A DNA stretch of 64,000 bases from an uncultured Actinomycetes bacterium. GTDB lineage: Bacteria; Actinomycetota; Acidimicrobiia; IMCC26256; JANYLB01. Below the pieces are notes generated by a model, which saw nothing but the letters and a program-made list of their open reading frames with translations, did no database searches and was not told the origin of the DNA. The position numbers were made by a program, and so were the translations under genes. Positions 4,750-63,292 of this stretch are shown piece after piece. The DNA is taken from contig CAWHIU010000001.1 of NCBI GenBank assembly GCA_963829475.1, positions 87,068 through 151,067 on the forward strand. Reading direction: 5' to 3'. The first letter of the stretch is position 1. The number at the start of each line of letters is the position of its first letter.

Positions 4750-5739
4750 TCAGCTCAGGGTCAGCGACGGATCCGCGCCCGAGTCGAGCGGCGTCGGGCC
4801 GTCGATCCGCAGGCGCCACCATGCCGTGGCGGCGATCATCGCCCCGTTGTCGGTGCAGAGCTCGGGCGGCGGGAGGAACGCGTGGCGTCCGGTCGCCTCC
4901 GCCGCCTCGCGCACCCGTGCCCGCAAGCGGGAGTTCGCGGCGACACCGCCCCCGATCACCAGGGTCGGCGCATCGATCTCGTCGGCCGCGGCCAGCAGCT
5001 TCGCCACCAACGTGTCGACGACCGCCTCCTGGAACGACGCCGCGACGTCGGCGGGCACGGCGTCGGGCGCGCCCCGCAGGTGGTAGGCGACCGCGGTCTT
5101 CAGGCCCGCGAAGGAGAAGTCGAAGCCGTTGCCGACCATCGGACGGGGGAACGGCACCGCGTCGATGCGACCGACGCGCGCGATCCGGTCGATCGCCGGC
5201 CCGCCGGGGTACCCGAGACCGAGAAGACGGGCCACCTTGTCGAACGCCTCACCCGCGGCGTCGTCGAGCGTCTGACCGAGCACCCGGTACTTCCCGTGAT
5301 CCTCGACCGCGACCACCATGGTGTGGCCACCCGACACGAGCAGCACCGCGAGCGGCGACGGCAGATCGGGCTCCTCGAGCCACGCCGCATGCAGGTGGCC
5401 CTCGAGATGGTTCACGCCGACGTAGGGGATGTCGGCCGCGAGCGCGAGCGCCTTCGCCGCGCTCACACCGACGAGGAGCGCGCCGGCGAGCCCCGGGCCG
5501 TGGCACGCCGCGACCGCGTCGAGATCGGAGAGCTCGCACCCGGCCTCGACGAGCGCCTCCGCGATGACCGCCGTGATGAGCTGCACGTGGGCCCGACTCG
5601 CGATCTCGGGGACGACACCACCGAACCGCGCGTGGAGGTCGATCTGGCTCGACACCACCGACGAGCAGATCACGCGGCCGTCTTCCACCACCGCGGCAGC
5701 CGTCTCGTCGCAACTCGTCTCGAGCCCCAAGATCTTCAT
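4750..5739 (-). CDS. tsaD: tRNA N6-adenosine threonylcarbamoyltransferase TsaD (Kae1/Gcp)
   Basis: MKILGLETSCDETAAAVVEDG...GVNHLEGH...VSGGHT; 329 aa and intact. Confidence 0.95.
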   Translation of the reverse strand: MKILGLETSCDETAAAVVEDGRVICSSVVSSQIDLHARFGGVVPEIASRAHVQLITAVIAEALVEAGCELSDLDAVAACHGPGLAGALLVGVSAAKALALAADIPYVGVNHLEGHLHAAWLEEPDLPSPLAVLLVSGGHTMVVAVEDHGKYRVLGQTLDDAAGEAFDKVARLLGLGYPGGPAIDRIARVGRIDAVPFPRPMVGNGFDFSFAGLKTAVAYHLRGAPDAVPADVAASFQEAVVDTLVAKLLAAADEIDAPTLVIGGGVAANSRLRARVREAAEATGRHAFLPPPELCTDNGAMIAATAWWRLRIDGPTPLDSGADPSLTLS

Positions 5740-9092: not shown

Positions 9093-10216
9093 ACGATCCG
9101 CCGCGGGACGCGCGGTCCGATGCCACAGATGATCTCGTACGGGATGGTGCCGAGCCGATCGGCCCACTCGGCCGCCGTGACCTCGACGTCGCCCTGACGT
9201 CCGACGAGCACCACCTCGTCGCCGACTTCGACCGTCGCGTCGCCGATGTCGAGCAGGATCTGGTCCATCGTGACCGTGCCGGCGATCGGCACGCGGCGAC
9301 CTCCGACGGCGACCTCGCCACCGACGTGCGCGAGGTTCCGCGGGACTCCGTCGGCGTATCCCACCGGCACGGTGGCGACGCGCGACGTTCGGCTCAGCTC
9401 GTACCGAAGGCCGTAGGAGAGGCGAGACCCTGCGGGAAGGGTCTTCACGTACGAGACCCGGGCCTTGAACGACAGGGCCGGGCGCAGCGGGATGCGGTCG
9501 GCGAGCGTCGGCGCTCGGTGCGATGCCGTAGATCGCGATCCCAGCGCGGACGAGGTCGTAGTGGGCCGACGGGAACGCCAGGAGACCGGCCGAGTTCGCC
9601 GCGTGGCGAAGCCCGACGTCGACGCCGGCCGCTGCGAGATCGGCGAGCAGCGCGTCGAAGCGACCCGACCTGTTCACCGGTGTACGGATCGTCGGGCTCG
9701 TCGGCGACCGCGAGGTGGGTACACACCCCACCGAGCACCAACTCGCCGCGCTCGCCGATCGCGTCGACGAGCGCGCGTGCGTCGCCGGGCGCGCAGCCGA
9801 CGCGGTGCATCCCGGTGTCGACCTTGAGGTGCACCGGCAACGGATCCCGACGACCGCTCCCGGCAACGGCCTTCGCGAGGTGCTCGAGCCCAGACGGGCG
9901 TGTAGACGACGGGGGTCAGGCCCGCGGCGACGAGCGCGGCGGCAGCGTCGGGCGTGGGCTCCGACAGCACGAGGATCGGCGCGTCGATGCCCGCGTCGCG
10001 CAGCGCGATCCCCTCCTCGGTGAGCGCGACACCGAACCATTGCGCGCCCGCGTCGAGCGCGGCGCGCGCGACCGGGACCGCGCCGTGTCCGTACCCATCG
10101 GCCTTCACCACGGCCATGACCGCGGCCGGATCAGCCGCGGCGGCGATGGCGCGGGTGTTCGCCCGCACCGCGTCGAGATCGATCTCGACCCATGCGGGTC
10201 GGAAGCGCTCGGTCAT
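9089..10216 (-). pseudogene. alr: alanine racemase, three frame breaks as sequenced
   Basis: Four segments join into one Alr. They are MTERFRPAWVEIDLDAVRANT...VVKADGYGHG...VVYTP, then SGLEHLAKAV...PVHLKVDTGMHRVGC...DDPYT, then RFDALLADLAAAGVD...HAANSAG...AIYGIAPS, then PTLADRIPLRPALSFKARVSYVKTLPAGSRLSYG...GTVTMDQ...IPYEIIC. The shifts are near 9895, 9664 and 9517. Confidence 0.85.
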
Positions 10217-29919: not shown

Positions 29920-30015
29920 GTCGCTCCTTGATGGTCGAATCCGCTGCGCCGGCTCGATCGCCCGCTGGCTGAACTTCCCGCGGTGGCGTGTCCGCCGGCT
30001 CCGCTGCTTCTCCTA
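29920..30015 (-). repeat. intergenic repeat family, locus A (1 unit, 96 nt) filling the whole rpmD-rplO spacer
   Basis: The sense strand reads CTAGGAGAAGCAGCGGAGCCGGCGGACAC...GCGATCGAGCCGGCGCAGCGGATTCGACCATCAAGGAGcgacATG. It starts on the rpmD TAG and its 3' end forms the rplO Shine-Dalgarno. Confidence 0.85.
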
Positions 30016-30743: not shown

Positions 30744-30766
30744 CTTCTCTGCTTCCCTCTTGTCTC

Positions 30767-31123
30767 TCAGAACTCGAGACCGGCTTCGCGGGCGCCATCG
30801 GCGACCCCTGCGACCCGACCGTGGTACCGGAACCCGCCGCGGTCGAACACGACCGTGCTCACACCGGCGGCCTTGGCTCGTTCTCCGACCAGCTTGCCGA
30901 TCGCCTTCGCGGCGTCGACCGTGGCGGTCGGGTCGGTGCGCCGATCGGATTCCATCGTCGACGCGGATGCGAGGGTCCGACCCTGCACGTCGTCGATGAC
31001 CTGCGCGTAGATGTGCTTGTTCGACCGGAACACGGCGAGGCGCGGCTTCGAGGCGGTGCCTCTGACCTTCTTGCGCACCCGGCGGTGCCGGCGCAGTCGA
31101 TGTTCGTGCGTGCTGATGCTCAT
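30767..31123 (-). CDS. rplR: 50S ribosomal protein L18
   Basis: [45 protein letters not shown]...[27 protein letters not shown]. Confidence 0.9.
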
Positions 31124-39435: not shown

Positions 39436-40625
39436 TCTACTTGAGGATCTTGGTGACGCGGCCGGCGCCCACGGTGCGGCCACCCTCACGGATCGCGAAC
39501 CGCAGGCCGTCTTCCATCGCGATCGGCTTGCCCAACTGGACGACCATCTCAGTGTTGTCGCCCGGCATCACCATCTCCGTACCCTCCGGCAAGGACAACC
39601 GTCCCCGTCACGTCCGTCGTCCGGAAATAGAACTGCGGGTGATAATTCGCGAAGAACGGAGTGTGGCGACCACCCTCCTCCTTCGTCAACACATACACCT
39701 GCGCCTCGAAATCCGTGTGCGGCGTGATCGACCCCGGCTTCGCGAGGACCTGACCCCGCTCCACATCTTCCTTCTTCGTACCCCGCAACAAGGCACCGAT
39801 GTTGTCACCCGCGCGGCCCTCATCCAGAAGCTTGCGGAACATCTCCACACCCGTACACGTCGTCTTCGTCGTATCCCGCAGACCGACGATCTCGACCTCT
39901 TCACCCGTCTTCACGATGCCCTGCTCGACCTTGCCGGTCACGACCGTCCCACGACCCGTGATCGTGAACACATCCTCGATCGGCATCAAGAACGGCTTCT
40001 CCAACTCCCGCACCGGCTCCGGGATGAACGCATCCACCGCATCCATCAACTCGACGACACCCGCCGCCGCAGCCTCATCACCCTCCAGCGCCTTCAACGC
40101 AGACACCCGAACGATCGGGGTGTCATCACCCGGGAACTCGTACTCGTTCAACAACTCACGAACCTCGAGCTCCACCAACTCGAGGAGCTCCTCATCATCG
40201 ACCTGATCAACCTTGTTCAACGCCACCACAATCGACGGAACCCCAACCTGACGAGCCAAGAGCACATGCTCACGCGTCTGCGGCATCGGACCATCCGTCG
40301 CCGCGACCACCAAAATCGCGCCATCCACCTGCGCGGCACCCGTGATCATGTTCTTGATGTAATCCGCATGCCCAGGCATATCCACATGCGCGTAATGCCG
40401 ATTCGCGGTCTCATACTCAACATGGGAGATATTGATCGTGATCCCCCGCGCCTTCTCCTCCGGCGCCTTATCGATCTGATCAAACGCCGTCGCCGTCACA
40501 TTCGCATCACGATCCGCCAACACCCGCGTGATCGCAGCCGTCAACGTCGTCTTCCCATGATCGATGTGACCCATCGTCCCAATATTCAAATGCGGCTTGT
40601 TCCGCTCGAACTTCGCCTTCGCCAT
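39436..40625 (-). pseudogene. tuf: elongation factor Tu, copy 1 (str-operon copy); 1-nt insertion near 39590 breaks the last ~50 codons as sequenced
   Basis: [31 protein letters not shown]... Compared with copy 2, ggcAAggac replaces ggcAggac. The restored frame ends KILK-TAG at 39436. Confidence 0.9.
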
Positions 40626-43960: not shown

Positions 43961-43990
43961 AGGATAGGGATCTCGCGGTACGCGGGCAAA
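43961..43990 (-). promoter_or_regulatory. candidate promoter of the rpsL-rpsG-fusA-tuf operon
   Basis: On the minus strand TTTGCC-N18-TATCCT lies directly after the rpoC stop, about 30 nt upstream of the rpsL GTG (SD AGGAGC). Confidence 0.4.
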
Positions 43991-43994
43991 CGGA

Positions 43995-46900
43995 TCAGGC
44001 TTCTTCACCTGCGGCGACGTCGGGGAGGACGACCGGCTCGGGAGCCCCTTCCACCTCCGCGACCGCAGCCGCGGGCTCGTCGGTACCACCGAACGAAGCG
44101 GTGAACGCACCCGTCTCCCCACCGCTCCCGCTGGCGAGAAACGCCGGGAGATCGGTGCTCGACGACTGCCGCGACGCGCTGGCGGCGAGCCACTCGGCGA
44201 TGTCGGCATCGTCGCCGACCTCGCTCGAGTAGAAGGGAAGCGGCTCGTAGTCGGGGGCCTCGGTGCGGATCTCGCGGTAGCGGGGCATCCCGGTACCGGC
44301 GGGGATCAGCTTGCCGATGATCACGTTCTCCTTGAGACCCTCGAGGCCGTCCTTCTTGCCCTCGATGGCCGCCTCGGTGAGGACGCGGGTGGTCTCCTGG
44401 AACGACGCCGCCGACAACCACGAGTCGGTGGCCAGCGATGCCTTCGTGATCCCCATCAGCTCGGGGCGACCCTCGGCCGGCTGCTTGCCAGCCTCCACGA
44501 GGCGACGGTTCGTCTCGGCGTAGAGCCGGGCGTCCTTCTTCTCGCCCGGCAGGAACTCCGAGTCACCCGACTCCGACACGGCGACGCGTCGGAGCATCTG
44601 ACGGATGATGACCTCGACGTGCTTGTCGTGGATCGACACGCCCTGTTCCCGGTAGACCTTCTGCACCTCGTCGACGAGGTACTGCTGGGTCTCACGGATG
44701 CCCTTGATCTCGAGCACCTTCTTCGGGTCGAGCGGGGTCTCGACATCGCCGACCAGACGGTCGCCGGCCGAGACCTCGTCGCCGTCGGTCACGTTGAGCT
44801 TCTGGCGCCACAGGACGATGTGCACCTCTTCGGTGCCGTCGTCGGCCACGATCGTGACCGTCCGCTCGCCCTTCTCGTTCTCGCCGACCCGGATCACACC
44901 GGAGCTCTCGGCGAGGGTCGAGGCGCCCTTCGGGGTGCGCGCCTCGAACAGCTCGACGACACGCGGCAGACCGTGGGTGATGTCCTCACCTGCCACACCA
45001 CCGGTGTGGAAGGTCCGCATGGTGAGCTGGGTTCCCGGCTCACCGATCGACTGGGCCGCGATGATCCCGACGGCCTCACCCATGTCGACGGCCTTGCCCG
45101 TGGCGAGCATCATCCCGTAGCACGACCCGCAGACACCCGAGAGGGAGTCGCAGGTGAGCGTGGAACGAACCCGGACCTGGGTGACGTCTTCGTCGGACGC
45201 GAGCTGGTCGAGCACGGTCTCGGTGCAGAGGGTGTTGCGGGCCAGGATCGATCCGTCGGCCAGCTCGACGTCGTCGAGCAGGCACCGGCCGAGCAGCCGG
45301 GTCTCCAGGAGACGACGGCTCTCGGCGTCGTCGAGGATGTCGTGCACCCAGATGCCGCGTCGGGCGCCGCAGTCTTCCTCGCGGACGATGATCTCCTGCG
45401 CGACGTCGACGAGTCGACGGGTCAGGTAGCCGGAGTCGGCGGTACGCAACGCGGTGTCGGCAAGACCCTTCCTCGCACCGTGGGTCGAGATGAAGTACTC
45501 GAGCACGGAGAGGCCTTCCCGGAAGTTCGACCGGATCGGCCGCGGGATGATCTCACCACGCGGGTTGGCGACGAGACCGCGCATACCGGCGATCTGACGC
45601 ACCTGCATGACGTTGCCTCGGGCACCCGACCCCACCATCATCTCGATGGGGTTGAAGAAGTTCTGGCTCATCTCGGCCGTCATGGCGTCGGTGACCTGCT
45701 GGGTCGCCTCCGTCCAGATCTCGATCTCCTTCTGGCGGCGCTCGTCGTCGGTGATGATGCCCCGGTCGTACTGCTGCTCGACCTTCTCGGCCTCACGCTC
45801 GTGGGCCTCGATGATCTCCGGCTTCGCGTCGGGGGTCTTCACGTCGGCGATCGAGATGGTCACACCGGCGCGCGACGAGTACTCGAACCCGAGGTCCTTG
45901 AGCTTGTCGAGGCTCACGGCCACGATCGCACGCGGGTACTTGTCGACCAGCTTCTGGACGACCTCGGTGACCTCGCGCTTCTTGACGATCCGGTCCTCGA
46001 ACGGGAAGTCGGGCGGGAACGCCTCGTTGAAGAGGAACCGACCGAGCGTCGTCTCGACCAGAGCCGAGCCGGTGTCGTTGGTGTCGGCGCCGTTGGAACC
46101 CTGACGTCGCAGCACCGGGGAATCACCCGCGTTGGGGTTCGCGACCCAGGCACCGTCGGACTCGTTCCAGATCAGCTGCGACGGGAACTGCTCCTCGGGG
46201 AAACGCCCGAGCGGCATGCGCACCTTGATCTTGGCGTGCAACGACAGGCCCTGCGACGCGGAGCCGGGGAGCGAGGTGTCGAGGTCGGGGTCGGCGTCCC
46301 AGCCGCGCTCCTCGTACGCCGCGCGAGCTTCCTCGAGCGACGAGAACGCGCGTCCTTCACCGGGGGCACCTTCGCTGTGCACGGTGAGGTAGTACGCACC
46401 GATGATCTGGTCCTGGTTCGGGACCGTGATCGGACGACCGTGGGCCGGCGACAAGATGTTGTGCGCCGACAGCATGAGCAGTCGAGCCTCGGCCTGCGCC
46501 TCCGACGAGAGCGGGAGGTGGACGGCCATCTGGTCACCGTCGAAGTCGGCGTTGAACGCGGTGCAGACGAGCGGGTGGATCTGGATCGCCTTGCCCTCGA
46601 CGAGCACGGGCTCGAACGCCTGGATGCCGAGACGGTGCAACGTTGGGGCCCGGTTCAGGAACACCGGGTGCTCCTTGATGACCTCTTCGAGCACGTCCCA
46701 CACCTGCGGGCGCGCGCGCTCGACCATGCGCTTCGCCGACTTGATGTTCTGCGCGTACTCGAGGTCGACGAGCCGCTTCATCACGAAGGGCTTGAACAGC
46801 TCGAGCGCCATCTGCTTCGGCAGACCGCACTGCTGGAGCTTGAGCTTCGGGCCGACGACGATCACCGAACGGCCGGAGTAGTCGACGCGCTTGCCGAGCA

Positions 46901-55929: not shown

Positions 55930-55987
55930 CCGGGGGTCCGGACGCGACAGATTAGCCGACGCTCCCGGCCAGGGTCCGGGCGAGGAG

Positions 55988-56110
55988 CCGTCGTTGGTGT
56001 CCGGCGGCTCCGCTGCTTCTCCTCTTGATGGTCGAATCCGCTCCGCCACCTCGATCGCCCACCCGCGAAACACCCGTCGTTGGTGTCCGGCGGCTCCGCT
56101 GCTTCTCCTA
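55988..56110 (-). repeat. intergenic repeat family, locus B (1 full unit 56023-56110 plus a 35-nt partial unit) between rpmG and tRNA-Trp
   Basis: The sense strand reads CTAGGAGAAGCAGCGGAGCCGCCGGACACC...GCGATCGAGGTGGCGGAGCGGATTCGACCATCAAGA, then GGAGAAGCAGCGGAGCCGCCGGACACCAACGACGG. It starts on the rpmG TAG. Confidence 0.85.
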
Positions 56111-56304: not shown

Positions 56305-57493
56305 TTACTTGAGGATCTTGGTGACGCGGCCGGCGCCCACGGTGCGGCCACCCTCACGGATCGCGAACCGCAGGCCGTCTTCCATCGCGATCGGCTTGCC
56401 CAACTGGACGACCATCTCAGTGTTGTCGCCCGGCATCACCATCTCCGTACCCTCCGGCAGGACAACCGTCCCCGTCACGTCCGTCGTCCGGAAATAGAAC
56501 TGCGGGTGATAATTCGCGAAGAACGGAGTGTGGCGACCACCCTCCTCCTTCGTCAACACATACACCTGCGCCTCGAAATCCGTGTGCGGCGTGATCGACC
56601 CCGGCTTCGCGAGGACCTGACCCCGCTCCACATCTTCCTTCTTCGTACCCCGCAACAAGGCACCGATGTTGTCACCCGCGCGGCCCTCATCCAGAAGCTT
56701 GCGGAACATCTCCACACCCGTACACGTCGTCTTCGTCGTATCCCGCAGACCGACGATCTCGACCTCTTCACCCGTCTTCACGATGCCCTGCTCGACCTTG
56801 CCGGTCACGACCGTCCCACGACCCGTGATCGTGAACACATCCTCGATCGGCATCAAGAACGGCTTCTCCAACTCCCGCACCGGCTCCGGGATGAACGCAT
56901 CCACCGCATCCATCAACTCGACGACACCCGCCGCCGCAGCCTCATCACCCTCCAACGCCTTCAACGCGACTGACCCGAACGATCGGGGTGTCATCACCCG
57001 GGAACTCGTACTCGTTCAACAACTCACGAACCTCGAGCTCCACCAACTCGAGGAGCTCCTCATCATCGACCTGATCAACCTTGTTCAACGCCACCACAAT
57101 CGACGGAACCCCAACCTGACGAGCCAAGAGCACATGCTCACGCGTCTGCGGCATCGGACCATCCGTCGCCGCGACCACCAAAATCGCGCCATCCACCTGC
57201 GCGGCACCCGTGATCATGTTCTTGATGTAATCCGCATGCCCAGGCATATCCACATGCGCGTAATGCCGATTCGCGGTCTCATACTCAACATGGGAGATAT
57301 TGATCGTGATCCCCCGCGCCTTCTCCTCCGGCGCCTTATCGATCTGATCAAACGCCGTCGCCGTCACATTCGCATCACGATCCGCCAACACCCGCGTGAT
57401 CGCAGCCGTCAACGTCGTCTTCCCATGATCGATGTGACCCATCGTCCCAATATTCAAATGCGGCTTGTTCCGCTCGAACTTCGCCTTCGCCAT
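56305..57493 (-). pseudogene. tuf: elongation factor Tu, copy 2 (tRNA-tuf-rpmG-secE copy); 1-nt insertion in a small divergent patch near 56966-56974 splits it as sequenced
   Basis: It is identical to copy 1 except at four places. These are the stop codon (TAA vs TAG), one synonymous Leu change, the patch gtc-agt-C-gcg (copy 1 gtg-tct-gcg), and the absence of the copy-1 extra A. Confidence 0.9.
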
Positions 57494-58435: not shown

Positions 58436-58500
58436 ATGTGGAGCGAGCGGAGGCTCCTCAGCCGTGCCCCGAACCGGCGAGCGAGCGGAGCAATCAGAGA
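58436..58500 (+). repeat. possible degenerate or truncated member of the repeat family, downstream of the GNAT gene
   Basis: GTGGAGCGAGCGGAGG resembles the 5' box. CGAACCGGCGAGCGA is identical to 15 nt of the locus C units. It is followed by GCGGAGCAATCAGAGA (compare AGCGGATTCGACCATCAAG). Confidence 0.3.
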
Positions 58501-58668: not shown

Positions 58669-59157
58669 ATGCCCAGCTTCGACGTCGTCTCCGAGGTCGA
58701 CATGCAGGAAGTCCGCAACGCGGTCGACCAGGCCGACCGCGAGATCGCGAACCGGTTCGACTTCAAGGGCACCGACAGCTCGATCGAGCTGAAGGACAAG
58801 GGCATCGAGCTCGAGACGGCCAGTGAGGAGCGGCTGAAGGCGCTCACGCAGGTGCTCGAGGAGAAGTTCGTCAAGCGCAAGGTCTCGTTGAAGTCGCTCG
58901 ACTACGGCAAGATCGAGGAAGCGTCGAAAGGCGCGGTCCGCCAGACCGTCGGTCTCGCGGTCGGCATCAACTCCGACAAGGCCCGCGAGATCGGCAAGTA
59001 CATCAAGGGCCTCGGGATGAAGGGCGTCCAGCACCAGGTCCAGGGCGAGCAGCTCCGGGTGACCGGCAAGAAGCGTGACGACCTCCAGGCCACGATCGCG
59101 AAGCTCAAGGAGCACGACTTCGGGATCCCGCTCCAGTTCGAGAACTTCCGGGACTAG
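58669..59157 (+). CDS. yajQ: YajQ-family (UPF0234) nucleotide-binding protein
   Basis: MPSFDVVSEVDMQEVRNAVDQADREIANRFDFKGTDSSIELKDK...LQFENFRD. Confidence 0.85.
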   Translation: MPSFDVVSEVDMQEVRNAVDQADREIANRFDFKGTDSSIELKDKGIELETASEERLKALTQVLEEKFVKRKVSLKSLDYGKIEEASKGAVRQTVGLAVGINSDKAREIGKYIKGLGMKGVQHQVQGEQLRVTGKKRDDLQATIAKLKEHDFGIPLQFENFRD

Positions 59158-59328
59158 GAGAAGAAGCGGAGCCGGCGGACACACGCCGCGGGCCACGAAC
59201 CGGCGAGCGATCGAGCCGGCGCAGCGGATTCGACCAACAAGTAGGAGAAGAAGCGGAGCCGGCGGACACACGCCGCGGGCCACGAACCGGCGAGCGATCG
59301 AGCCGGCGCAGCGGATTCGACCATCAAG
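59155..59328 (+). repeat. intergenic repeat family, locus C: two tandem 87-nt units differing at one base
   Basis: The unit is TAGGAGAAGAAGCGGAGCCGGCGGACACACGCCGCGGGCCACGAACCGGCGAGCGATCGAGCCGGCGCAGCGGATTCGACCA(A/T)CAAG, present twice. The first TAG is the yajQ stop. The array ends at the stop of the convergent HAD gene. Confidence 0.9.
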
Positions 59329-59835
59329 TCAGTCGTAGTAGCCGGAGTGGATGTAGATGCAGGGGATGCCGTCGCGTCGGAGCATGTCGACGTTGCGGCG
59401 GTCGTCTTCGATCCCGAGGCGGAGATCGAACCCGAAGCGACGGAGATCCCAGATGCTCGATTGCTTGAACTCGCGGGCCATCTCGTAGTCACCCCACGGC
59501 CGCATGATCAACAGGTCCCAGCGGATCCCGTAGCGGTTGAGCCACGCTTCGGTGAGGTGGTGGACCCGACCGGGACGCGCGGTCAACAGCACGATCCGCA
59601 GCCCGGGGTGGAGGAGGTCGAGGAGGACCTTGATCTCCTCGATCACGTCGTCGTCACCGCAGGCCTCGAAGAACGACTGCCAGTCGCGTCGCGGTGCCTC
59701 GAGGTAGTGCTGTCGGTTCGCGGCGTCGGAGAGCACACCGTCGATGTCGACGACCGCGGCGGGACCGGGCTCCACCGCACCGTCGCGCCACGTCCAATGC
59801 TCAGGAGGAGCGACCGGCGGGGTCGGAGCCGTCAC
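59329..59835 (-). CDS. HAD-superfamily phosphatase-like protein (168 aa)
   Basis: [11 protein letters not shown] (DxDG motif I), VLLTARP (motif II) and GIEDD (motif IV). GTG 59835 overlaps the acs TGA as GTGA. Confidence 0.6.
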
Positions 59836-61815
59836 GCATCGTCTCCCGGCGGTGCCGACGAGAGGTAGCGCTGCTTGATCCCTTCGACGACCGACGGATC
59901 GGCGAGGGTCGTGGTGTCGCCGAGCGCCTCGTCTTCCGCGACGTTGCGCAGCAGTCGGCGCATGATCTTGCCCGATCGGGTCTTCGGCAGCTCCTCGGTG
60001 AACAGCACCGTCTTCGGCTTCGCGATCGGCCCGATGGCCTTCGCCACGTGGTCGCGGAGCTCGAGGCCGAGCGCGTCGCTCGGCTCGAAGCCGGCCCGCA
60101 GGATCACGAACGCGCCGATGGCCTGGCCCGAGGTCGGATCGCTCTTGCCGACGACCGCGGCTTCGGCCACGGCCGGATGGCCGACGAGCGCCGACTCGAC
60201 CTCGGTGGTGGAGATGTTGTGGCCCGACACGAGCATGATGTCGTCGACCCGGCCGAGCAGCCAGAAGTACCCGTCGTCGTCGCGCTTGGCGCCGTCGCCG
60301 GCGAAGTACCGGCCCGCGTACTCGGACCAATACGTGTCGCGGTATCGATCGGGGTCGCCCCAGATGCCGCGCAGCATCGACGGCCACGGTCGGGTCAACA
60401 CGAGGTAGCCGCCACCGGGGATCCCGACCGACACGCCGTGCTCGTCGACGACATCGGCACCGATGCCCGGGATCGGGAACGTGGCGCTCCCGGGCTTCAA
60501 CGTGGTCGCGCCGGGGAGCGGGCTGATCATGATCGCCCCGGTCTCGGTCTGCCACCACGTGTCGACGACCGGACAACGCTCACCACCGATGTGCTTCCAG
60601 TACCAGATCCACGCTTCGGGGTTGATCGGTTCGCCGACCGTCCCGAGCAAGCGGAGCGACGAGAGATCGTGGCGCTCGGGGAACTCCGTGCCCCACTTCA
60701 TGAAGGTACGGATCGCGGTCGGCGCGGTGTAGAGCGTCGTCACCGCGTAGCGCTCGACGATCGACCAGAAGCGCTCCTTGTCGGGGAAGTCGGGCGTGCC
60801 CTCGTACATGACGCTGGTCGTGCGGTTCGCGAGCGGTCCGTAGACGATGTACGAGTGACCGGTGACCCACCCACAGTCAGCCGCGCACCAGTAGACGTCG
60901 GTGTCGGGGTGCAGGTCGAACACGTGCTTGTGGGTGAACGCGACCTGGGTGAGGTAGCCACCCGTCGTGTGCATGATCCCCTTGGGCTTTCCGGTCGTCC
61001 CGCTCGTGTAGAGGATGAACAGGAGGTCTTCGGAATCCATCGCCTCGGGCGCGCACTCGGCGCTCTGGCTGCGGGACGAGGTCGTGGTACCAGACGTCGC
61101 GGCCTTCCTGCATCGTGACGTCGTTCTCGGTGCGCCGGACCACGAGGACCTTCTGGATCGACGGCGTCTCCGCGACCGCGTCGTCGGCGGTTGCCTTCAA
61201 CGGGACCACGTTCCCCCGCCGCCACGCGCCGTCGCCGGTGACGAGCACCGTGCACTCGGCATCGTTGATCCGGTCGCGGAGGGAGTCCTTCGAGAACCCG
61301 CCGAACACCACGGAGTGCGCGGCGCCGATTCGTGCGCACGCGAGCATCGCCATCGGGAGTTCGGGCACCATCCCGAGGTAGATGGCGACCCGGTCGCCCT
61401 TGCCGACGCCGAGCTCCTTGAGCGCGTTCGCCAACCGGCTCACCTCGTCGAGGAGCTCGGAGTAGGTGATGGTGCGGGTGTCGCCGGGCTCGCCCTCCCA
61501 GTGGTACGCCACCTGCGAGCCGTGCCCGGAATCGACATGACGATCGATGCAGTTCTGACTGGCGTTCAGCTCCCCGCCCACGAACCACTTCGCGAACGGC
61601 AGGTCCCAGTCGAGGATGGTGTCCCACTCCTTCGACCAGTCGAGCGCGACTGCCTGACGCGCCCAGAAGCCCTCGTAGTCGCGATCGGCGTCGTCGTAGA
61701 GGTCGGTCCCGACGACGAGGGCATCCTTCTTGAAGGTCTCGGGCGGTGGGAAGCGACGCCCCTCGGCCAGCAGTCCCTCGATCGTCGGCTCCGCCATCGT
61801 CTCCCCCTGGGTCAT
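59832..61815 (-). pseudogene. acs: acetyl-CoA synthetase, one frame break near 61070 as sequenced
   Basis: The N-terminal part is ...FWARQAVALDWSKEWDTILDW...WFVGGELNASQNCIDRH...VFGGFS. It continues in another frame as [38 protein letters not shown]...[15 protein letters not shown] 61797 is an alternative start. Confidence 0.85.
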
Positions 61816-61860
61816 CCACCGAAGCGGATCACCCTACCGTCCGCCCACCGCAGCGTTCCT

Positions 61861-61898
61861 GCGTCGTGAGCGCGGGGAATTTCCCGCGCTCACGACGC
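61861..61898 (-). terminator. 16-bp perfect hairpin overlapping the stop codon of the MidA-like gene
   Basis: The arm gcgtcgtgagcgcggg pairs with cccgcgctcacgacgc around the 6-nt loop gaattt. The stop TGA (61892-61890) lies in the 3' arm. There is no U-tract. Confidence 0.55.
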
Positions 61899-63051
61899 CG
61901 GAACGAGGCCCTTGGTGAGGATGGTGACGGTGTGGGCGCCGAGACCGTCGGGGTCGCTGAGGGCGGCGGCCTCGGTGACGCGGCTGCGGGCGGCGAGCGC
62001 GGCCAGGTCGCCGATGTGGGCGCGGGCCTGCCACTCGCGACGACCCGCCTCGACCATCTGGTCGAGGCCGAGACCCGTCAGCCACTCGGCCTGGGTCATC
62101 TCCGCCGCGACCGTGAAGCCGACCCGACGTGCGGCGCGGTGCAGCGTCTCGGTGACGACATCGGTCGTCACGTCCTGCGTCCCCGGCCCGACGAGCGGAT
62201 CGTCGCCCCGCTGGTGGGCCCGGTAGGTCCGCAGCCACCCGGATTGGCCACGTGCTGCGAGGACCGACGCCGAGGCTGCGTAGTCGATCACGACGACGAC
62301 GCCACGGTGCAGGCAGCTTGCACAGGCGGCGAGCCAGGCTTCGACCCCGCGCTGCAATGGGAGCCGGCTCCCGGGCGGCGCGTCGAACGCAGGGGCGAGC
62401 GGAGGCGTCGGCGGGGATCGGCACCTCCACGAACCGGTCGCCGTCGACGCCGATCCGAATCTCGTCCCAACCGGTGGCCGTGCGTTCGACAACGTCGAAG
62501 GGGAGGTTGTCGAGCAGCTCGTTGGCGAAGATCACGCCTTCGAAACCGAGTGCGGGCAGATCGTCGAGCGCGGTCACGATCGGTCCGATTCCGGTGACCG
62601 CCTCGGGATCGCCGTCGCCGCCCGCCGAGGGGAGGAACGGGCCGAGCGCGTCTTCCCAAGGTTCGATCGTGACGTGCTCACGTTGCTCGGCCCGCAGCGT
62701 GGCCGAGCGCTCCACCAGCACGTAGCGCAGAGCCGTGGCGCACGACGGTTCGACGCGCAGCACGTCACGTGCGAGGCGGCCACGCCCGGCGCCGGCCTCG
62801 ACCACGATGAACGGATCCGGAGACCCGAGCTCGACGAACCACCGATCGAGCGCCCGGGCGACCAGCGCACCGAAGAGCGACCCGACCTCGGGGCTGGTGA
62901 CGAAGTCGGCTCCGCCGCGGCCGGCGCCGCCATGGGTGAAGAACTCGTCGAGCGCCGCACGGACGAAGACCGAGTACGGCACCGGCCCCTCCCGGTGGAT
63001 CCGCTCAACCAACTCGATGGTCGAATCCGTTCCGCCGGCTCGATCGCTCAC
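61890..63051 (-). pseudogene. MidA/NDUFAF7-family (DUF185) SAM-dependent methyltransferase, one frame break near 62402 as sequenced (C run); start uncertain
   Basis: ELVERIHREGPVPYSVFVRAALDEFF...DFVTSPEVGSLFGALVA...VEAGAGRGRLARDVL...FANELLDNLPF continues in another frame as PLAPAFDAPPGSRLPLQRGVEAWL...VVIDYA...LRTYR. The longest-ORF GTG (63051) lies inside repeat unit D3. TTG 63012 abuts the repeat end. Confidence 0.7.
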
Positions 63052-63292
63052 CGACTCATCGCCCGTGGGAGAAATCCGCCGGCTCCACTTCTTCTCCTGC
63101 GATGGTCACGTCTACCACGATGGTCGAATCCGTTCCGCTGGCTCGATCGCCCACCCAATCGGCAACCGCGCGGGAGTGTCCGCCGGCTCCACTCCTTCTC
63201 CTACTTCGATGGTCGAATCCGTTCCGCAGGCTCGATCGCCCACCCAATCGGCAACCATGCGGGCCTTTCCGCCGGCTCCACTCCTTCTCCTA
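63013..63292 (-). repeat. intergenic repeat family, locus D: three tandem units (63204-63292, 63118-63203, 63013-63097, with a 20-nt linker) between nuoN and the MidA-like gene
   Basis: The sense strand reads CTAGGAGAAGGAGTGGAGCCGGCGGA...GGGCGATCGAGCC(T/A)GCGGAACGGATTCGACCATCGAAG, then TAGGAGAAGGAGTGG... The first TAG is the nuoN stop. Confidence 0.9.

Follow-up and report, generated by a model that had tools for sequence, protein, structure and literature searches.

What kind of sequence can fill the spacer between two ribosomal-protein genes and turn up again at the ends of other genes nearby? The rpmD–rplO spacer raises this question in the 64-kb stretch of DNA analysed here (the window; G+C content 68%). 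The first-pass annotation of the window described a repeat at four loci, and the sequence bears this out: seven full units of ~87 nt each and one half unit are spread over four loci, with 8 matches to the 5′ box AGGAGAAGNAGNGGAGCCGNCGGA where 0.00 are expected and 7 matches to the 3′ box CGGATTCGACCATC where 1.2 are expected. Unit coordinates were taken from nhmmer, and the four loci were also read directly.

30015–30013, minus strand: stop codon TAG of rpmD, which is the first triplet of unit A1
29927–30015, minus strand: unit A1, between the rpmD stop and rplO (nhmmer E=3e-20)
29920–29926, minus strand: 7-nt linker GAGCGAC between unit A1 and the rplO ATG (29919–29917)
56024–56110, minus strand: unit B1, beginning on the rpmG stop TAG (56110–56108)
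55983–56023, minus strand: half unit B2, 41 nt, model positions 2–42, with the 5′ box only (E=2e-4)
55929–55856, minus strand: tRNA-Trp, downstream of B2 after ~50 nt of unrelated sequence
59155–59241 and 59242–59328, plus strand: units C1 and C2 in tandem, 87 nt each
63205–63292, 63116–63203 and 63013–63099, minus strand: units D1, D2 and D3, a three-unit array

Repeat units in the window and in other Acidimicrobiia

Read in the sense direction, a unit starts with TAGGAGAAGnAGyGGAGCCGGCGGAC, continues through ~25 variable nt and ends with GGTGAGCGATCGAGCCGGCGnAGCGGATTCGACCATCAAG; a core of ~80 nt (GAGAAG...GATTCGACCA) is conserved. The window units are also recovered by repeat finders (periods 87 and 89; families D6, D10 and D14). 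The units of the C array reach from the TAG that ends a yajQ-like gene to the TGA stop (TCA on the plus strand) of a convergent gene at 59329. The D array begins on the TAG of nuoN and reaches the TTG with which a midA-like gene starts; its junction between D2 and D3 is irregular (16 nt, with a second copy of GACCATCG). Units of one array have a common middle, with identities of 99% between C1 and C2 and 91% between D1 and D2, so arrays grow by local duplication. As had been claimed, all four arrays in the window start on the TAG of the upstream gene (rpmD, rpmG, yajQ-like and nuoN), and this TAG is preceded by C.

Further copies were collected by two independent scans. A genome collection scanned with the 3′-box pattern gave 81 loci, in which a profile built from the seven window units found 124 units in 93 arrays, and a metagenome scan with the 5′-box pattern gave 117 stretches, most of them from three samples, with 199 units in 128 arrays. 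Pooled, the scans comprise 221 arrays, 323 units and 198 loci. The genome collection excludes the window's own genome, and the nearest loci in it are 85–93% identical. The genome matches are nearly all in Acidimicrobiia MAGs (CAWIOF01, a long-read MAG, JBBRHS01, JBBQMI01 and UBA3086), and the hosts of the family are uncultured Acidimicrobiia from soil and freshwater. Single units make up 66% of the 221 arrays (145), followed by double (55), triple (16) and quadruple (5) arrays. Unit lengths stay within 85–89 nt across the family, and the in-frame GC3 of a unit is ~66%, compared with 80–95% in the ORFs taken as genes.

The repeat is therefore a genuine multi-copy family, and it is new, as had been proposed. 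A gathering-threshold Rfam scan of the window returned four tRNAs only, and a permissive scan of locus C returned nothing on the units; the searchable literature, queried by topic and with the exact box sequences, held no description of the repeat; and locus C had no blastn match in the plasmid collection. The class of small bacterial mobile repeats is already known. What the family adds is a well-defined repeat for Acidimicrobiia, a class that has received little study and is for the most part uncultured.

One further segment of the window had been regarded as a possible relic of the same repeat.

58436–58500, plus strand: member of a second family, 5′ TATGTGGAGCGAGCGGAGGCTC ... GGCGAGCGAGCGGAGCAATCAGAG 3′, ending at the 3′ end of tRNA-Tyr

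Its origin as a decayed copy is rejected: at E=2.9, nhmmer rates the segment no higher than sequences within genes. Both of its ends recur in elements of the loci L082 and L070, indicating that it belongs to a second family of ~66–72 nt and lower copy number, 5′ (T)ATGTGGAGCGAGCGGAG ... GGCGAGYGAGCGGAGCAATCWGAG 3′, with copies at 58436–58500 of the window, at 9578–9649 of L082 and at about 4310–4371 of L070 (minus strand). In L082, where the L15 identity is 93%, it is a 72-nt element of this second family that occupies the rpmD–rplO spacer. An unrelated 87-nt G+C-rich insert with GCAGCGGAGCGGAGCG motifs was also observed between rplX and rplE of L126 (8064–8151), unlike in the window, where the two genes overlap (GTGATGG); this insert may represent a third intercistronic repeat family.

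Paired boxes and stop codons at both ends

The two boxes pair with each other. RNAalifold, run on 110 distinct units, gave an interrupted, long-range stem of 11 bp in three parts (columns 6–8 with 79–81, 12–13 with 74–75 and 17–22 with 65–70), and 97.7% of the stem cells are standard pairs, compared with 23–47% in slid controls. Double changes occur in 5 of the 11 pairs, and 26 cells are changed on both sides as opposed to 2.4±1.4 in shuffles, none of 500 of which reaches this number; these counts are inflated by related copies, but several pair types still recur at unrelated loci. The compensated pairs include GGCGGC/GCCGCC, GTCGGC/GCCGAC and GCAGGC/GCCTGC, and within the window the helix of unit B1, GCCGCC/GGTGGC, is compensated relative to the consensus GCCGGC/GCCGGC. 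Regarded as terminal inverted repeats, the ends are weak, with 11 paired positions in ~25 that form three short, non-contiguous helices. Whole units exceed shuffled sequences modestly in stability (mean z about −1). A conserved hairpin in the variable middle was considered as a candidate and rejected, its stability being no better than that of shuffled sequences (mean z=−0.24).

Comparison of 12 orthologous pairs showed identities of 95.8% for the 5′ box, 93.9% for the 3′ box, 62.6% for the middle and 85–97% for the flanks. With boxes ~95% and middles ~63% identical in orthologs, the boxes appear to be constrained or homogenised while the middle drifts.

To place the arrays relative to genes, we predicted genes from codon log-odds, using a model that was trained on the loci's own long ORFs and was correct on the known genes of the window; a GC3-threshold caller was not used because it mis-called rpmD. 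The pooled arrays lie in convergent spacers (54), in co-directional spacers in antisense (37) or sense (33) orientation, and in divergent spacers (8). The repeat had been said always to point in the direction of its upstream gene, with a genome-wide census as the proposed test of that statement. The census gave 33 sense and 37 antisense arrays, indistinguishable from 1:1 (binomial p=0.72), and an antisense case inside an operon, sufS–element–sufU in L004, was checked by hand. The claimed polarity rested on three informative loci of the window (at locus C the neighbouring genes converge, which makes the orientation uninformative) and does not hold family-wide.

What does hold across the family is a preference for gene 3′ ends. 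Within the genome set, 33/76 convergent spacers are occupied (43%), 38/360 co-directional ones (11%) and 3/65 divergent ones (5%; chi-square p=1e-13); occupancy is lowest in the divergent class although its spacers are the longest. Spacers in these genomes are short, with a median of 25 nt. Replication-strand bias, judged from local GC skew, was not significant (p=0.2) in a test that is confounded by gene orientation.

The tie to stop codons that had been noticed in the window is real, but it is two-sided and involves both strands instead of running in one direction. Among the arrays with both flanks in view, 76% have an end ≤6 nt from a stop. On the 5′ side, with a co-oriented upstream gene, 63% (n=49) and 73% (n=52) of the ends in the two scans lie within this distance; the first triplet of the element, TAG, is itself the stop of the upstream gene in 37 arrays (17+20), which forms a sharp peak, and TAG accounts for 59% of the 5′-side stops versus a genome-wide baseline of 26%. 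On the 3′ side, with a convergent downstream gene, the corresponding fractions are 91% (n=56) and 80% (n=66), and the 3′ end ...GACCA-TCA/CTA gives TGA or TAG to the gene on the opposite strand in 53 arrays (TCA in 16+21, CTA in 7+9). The 70 co-directional arrays lie at a median distance of −3 nt on the stop side versus 29 nt on the start side, the stop side being the nearer one in 59 of them (p=4e-8). A truncated unit may also end on the internal TGA of GGTGAGCG, which is then used as a stop (L036).

The stricter rules read from the window are tendencies elsewhere. The array begins with TAG in only ~25–30% of cases family-wide, not always, the other first triplets being CAG, CCG, GAG and AAG, and the C that was thought always to precede the TAG of the element is present at 13/24 de-duplicated sites against a 33% baseline (p=0.02). 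For annotators, the practical point is that units supply stop codons and, at some loci, seemingly start codons or ribosome-binding sites.

Occupied and empty sites

At locus A, the unit and the 7 nt GAGCGAC together make up the whole rpmD–rplO spacer, as had been described. The sequence AAGGAG sits 5 nt before the rplO ATG and straddles the 3′ end of the element, being composed of the unit's last AAG and the linker. Relatives with this locus were found via the L15 protein. The site is empty in two of them with an L15 identity of 77–78%: it reads GGA TAG TC GTG in L084, with a spacer of 2 nt, and TAATG in L085, where rpmD and rplO overlap, and in both the Shine–Dalgarno sequence of rplO is located inside rpmD. 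These sequences agree with the earlier proposal that the repeat supplies the Shine–Dalgarno sequence of rplO, and, judging from them, the element at locus A has displaced the native ribosome-binding site, or translation-initiation context, of this gene. One unit is present at rpmD–rplO in each of L009, L044, L126, L161 and L162 and two in L083, and a copy is kept there in at least seven relatives. A duplication of AGGAG at locus A, considered as a general insertion pattern, did not generalise to other copies.

The number of tandem units varies between relatives, as had been anticipated: locus A carries 0, 1 or 2 units, and locus D carries 3 in the window versus 1.5 in L055 (one full unit and a 3′ half unit). 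Because of this variation, the units could serve as strain markers. Both filled and empty states were found at rpmD–rplO, rplR–rpsE, the ends of rpoC, truA and yajQ, and other sites, with flanks 88–97% identical. L072 and L195 carry the element just downstream of the rpoC stop, a site (43985–44000) that is empty in the window, and L083 carries it at the truA end. L115 lacks it at the yajQ end (locus C), where the gene stops on the same TAG, and further polymorphic sites occur among the MAGs. Wherever filled and empty orthologs could be compared, the position of the stop, hence the protein length, was equal.

The rplR–rpsE spacer is filled in L083 and L126 and unoccupied in the window (30760–30771, minus strand). 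The window reads TGA-GAGA-CAAG-AGGG there, which looks like fused element ends and exceeds by 10 nt the shorter spacer of L044 and L082, TAGGGAAGCAG (TAGGGAAG). One possible interpretation is that the window spacer is a footprint of excision or deletion, and it may also be an element-like target. The unoccupied targets TAGGGAAGCAGAGAAG (rplR–rpsE in L044 and L082) and TAAGCGGAGTCGCCG (L062, 3540–3560) resemble the 5′ box TAGGAGAAGCAGCGGAGCCGGCG, which hints that microhomology may have guided insertion, or that the box may have arisen from an intercistronic leader.

The cleanest pair of sites is L075 (filled) and L188 (empty). When the flanks of the L075 copy are joined, they match L188 in a gapless alignment at 94% identity, and the 9-nt TCAGGACGG, present once in L188, stands on either side of the element in L075. 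This is one clean insertion with a flanking duplication, which measures 7–9 bp and takes in the TGA of the neighbouring gene. Two further arrays have flanking repeats of 7–8 nt (L104, TCAGAGCA; L123, GAGCTAG around a 2-unit array), and the flanks of the same copy share more than permuted pairs do (mean longest common run 4.30 vs 4.01±0.08, z about 3.7). Most copies are without flanking duplication; the left-flank consensus is only YAG, left and right flanks share no consensus beyond AG, and the ATCARG of the right flank behaves as part of the element. Duplication of a TA or CTAG target, as with IS630-like elements, was rejected as a general rule, as only ~5% of the 3′ ends read CATC-TA-G.

Shortened forms also exist. 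A 43-nt derivative, deleted between two GAGCCGGCG direct repeats, is present in L034 (about 6574, minus strand), and L136 has four 5′-box matches at a 43-nt period (2830–2979). In the 0.55 Mb of flanks (~8–20 kb per locus), no transposase or RAYT-like gene was found among ~630 predicted proteins. Neighbouring genes and genes between inverted copies were housekeeping only, with no recurrent transposase-like neighbour, and the same 0.55 Mb contained no long copy bounded by both boxes and no box pair at an IS-like distance.

Nature of the repeat and neighbouring genes

A family whose boxes pair with covariation, which is biased to gene 3′ ends and stops, occurs in both orientations and is polymorphic in both presence and copy number, is best explained in our view as a non-autonomous, structured mobile DNA repeat of the MITE/REP-like class that belongs to a lineage of Acidimicrobiia (probability roughly 0.6). 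Bacterial MITEs include the Correia or nemis elements of Neisseria, ERIC/IRU and YPAL of enterobacteria, and RUP and BOX of pneumococcus. Like these, the element is small (<300 bp), non-coding and dispersed in many copies; pairing of its ends folds the transcript or the single strand into a rod; its copies are present or absent between relatives, with short flanking duplications at some of them; and they can overlap flanking genes and supply signals to them. Unlike MITEs, it has weak terminal inverted repeats, no parent IS found in the flanks and duplications at only a minority of copies, it frequently forms direct tandem arrays, and it carries stop triplets at both termini, which are used by the neighbours in ~35% of flanks.

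As a mobile repeat, the element would be copied, in either orientation, into the very short spacers found at gene 3′ ends and could then be amplified locally into direct tandem arrays. Its outer triplets are stop codons, (C)TAG at the 5′ end for one strand and, for the other, TCA or CTA at the 3′ end (read as TGA or TAG), and the element would land on or regenerate the stops of the flanking genes, leaving protein length unchanged. Such stop-coding termini, by keeping protein length, would account for the flush position of copies at stops and for their tolerance within essential operons. A trans-acting factor or enzyme that reads the folded, paired boxes would maintain the element, and the choice of stops would reflect a target preference, microhomology with the element ends, or selection after random insertion. 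Some observations fit the mobile repeat less well. The conservation of the boxes in old orthologs, including those in the spc operon, also fits an element that is useful to the host; stop-flushness could partly reflect selection, given the median spacer of 25 nt; and most copies lack a flanking duplication, the terminal inverted repeats are weak and no transposase gene was found in the 0.55 Mb of flanks.

A bolder and rather doubtful proposal is that the termini TAG-G... and ...CCA-TCA-RG guide insertion exactly to TAG or TGA stops on either strand, with the stop regenerated and both protein lengths kept. To our knowledge, a targeting logic of this kind has not been described for bacterial repeats. 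If true, it would explain how a selfish element can sit in even the 2-nt spacers of ribosomal-protein operons, and it is the only feature that could raise the element above an ordinary MITE/REP-like repeat. Should the two-sided flushness with stops be due to targeting and not to selection alone, it would represent an interesting mobile-element life in extremely compact operons.

The position of the stem right after stops could also suggest a cis-acting RNA of the host, which would stabilise or process mRNA 3′ ends, or modulate termination or re-initiation, including the supply of a ribosome-binding site as at rplO; we consider this unlikely as the main explanation. The strong constraint on the boxes in orthologs, the covarying stem, the retention of the rpmD–rplO copy in at least seven relatives and the AAGGAG 5 nt before the rplO ATG would all be expected of such an RNA, and G-U pairs on the sense strand are slightly more numerous than A-C mismatches (16 vs 9). 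However, this excess is not significant (p=0.23), and compared with shuffled sequences the middle hairpin gains no stability (z=−0.24) and the whole unit only a modest amount (z about −1). Terminator-like sites were found on no unit's main stem and their count was no higher than in shuffles, U-tracts were absent, and no promoter-like site coincided with a unit. A search for transcript evidence found no public run that holds the window (best word share 0.10). Which sites are occupied also varies among close relatives. With 33 sense and 37 antisense arrays in operons, a sequence-specific function would need both strands, and this even split of orientations weakens the RNA explanation further. 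A host RNA function and mobility are not mutually exclusive.

A REP- or REPIN-type element, maintained not by MITE-like cut-and-paste but by a RAYT (Y1 transposase) present in a single copy, or by a different recombinase that works on the folded single strand, seems to us more improbable still. As reportedly found by Liang, Rudd and Deutscher in 2015, many E. coli REPs lie within a few nt of stop codons. The element shares with REP, BIME and REPIN sequences its extragenic location at gene 3′ ends and in convergent spacers, its rarity in divergent (promoter) spacers, its conserved arms with a variable centre, and its long-term persistence; its structure would also fold as single-stranded DNA, and there is no general target duplication. 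In contrast to REPs, its 87-nt unit is not a near-perfect 20–40-bp palindrome, the arms being only partly complementary, and its arrays are direct, head to tail, and not inverted doublets. The GTAG/CGTC tag by which the REP family is defined (PMC3733652) is absent from the element ends. Moreover, the fetched flanks hold no copy-flanked RAYT-like gene, local GC skew gives no replication-strand bias (p=0.2), and one insertion has a 7–9-bp duplication.

Least of all do we favour the earlier comparison with mycobacterial MIRUs, i.e., a polar intercistronic minisatellite of co-oriented tandem units with a small ORF that overlaps the flanking stop and start codons and couples translation: the actinobacterial host, the 50–100-nt size, the intercistronic position with overlap of the upstream stop at some loci, the co-oriented start on a stop codon at window loci A, B and D, the variable copy number with 2–4 units in 76/221 arrays and the length of 87 nt, a multiple of 3, are all MIRU-like, but orientation is unbiased (33 vs 37) with no transcriptional polarity, the largest class of arrays (54) lies in convergent spacers without a downstream cistron, most copies are single (66% of arrays) and at convergent or terminal gene ends, unit lengths range over 85–89 nt, the consensus has no ATG, GTG or TTG after AGGAG and no overlapping mini-ORF, and no sequence relationship is apparent.

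Several neighbouring genes showed features of their own. In a citramalate/isopropylmalate synthase-like gene (KVEIYDTTLRDG), the reading frame extends upstream into the element as far as a GTG within GGTGGGCG. This frame is open in 3/3 orthologs (L001, 5362; L041, 6981; L074, 4997), none of which has a start codon between the conserved N-terminus and the element, and the element may supply a start and a 13-residue extension to this gene. The same frame is open in window unit D3 (63051), ahead of the midA-like gene. In L063, where cinA is followed by an element, a promoter-like site just beyond that element (4767–4800, TTGACC-GAACGGGTGTTC-...TACCCT) lies ahead of recA and carries a GAAC-N4-GTTC box of the LexA type, which the insertion left intact.

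The window contains two tuf copies (39438–40404 and 56306–57272) with 100%-identical stretches of 154–300 nt, in registers 1 nt apart. The second copy (tuf2, 56305–57493), the acetyl-CoA synthetase gene (59832–61815) and the midA-like gene (61834–63051) each consist of two overlapping ORFs; the pattern resembles single-base indels introduced by long-read assembly, the alternative being pseudogenes. In L195 (10320–11818), a metagenome contig joins fusA-tuf directly to rpmG and the element, probably through an assembly jump across the duplicated tuf.
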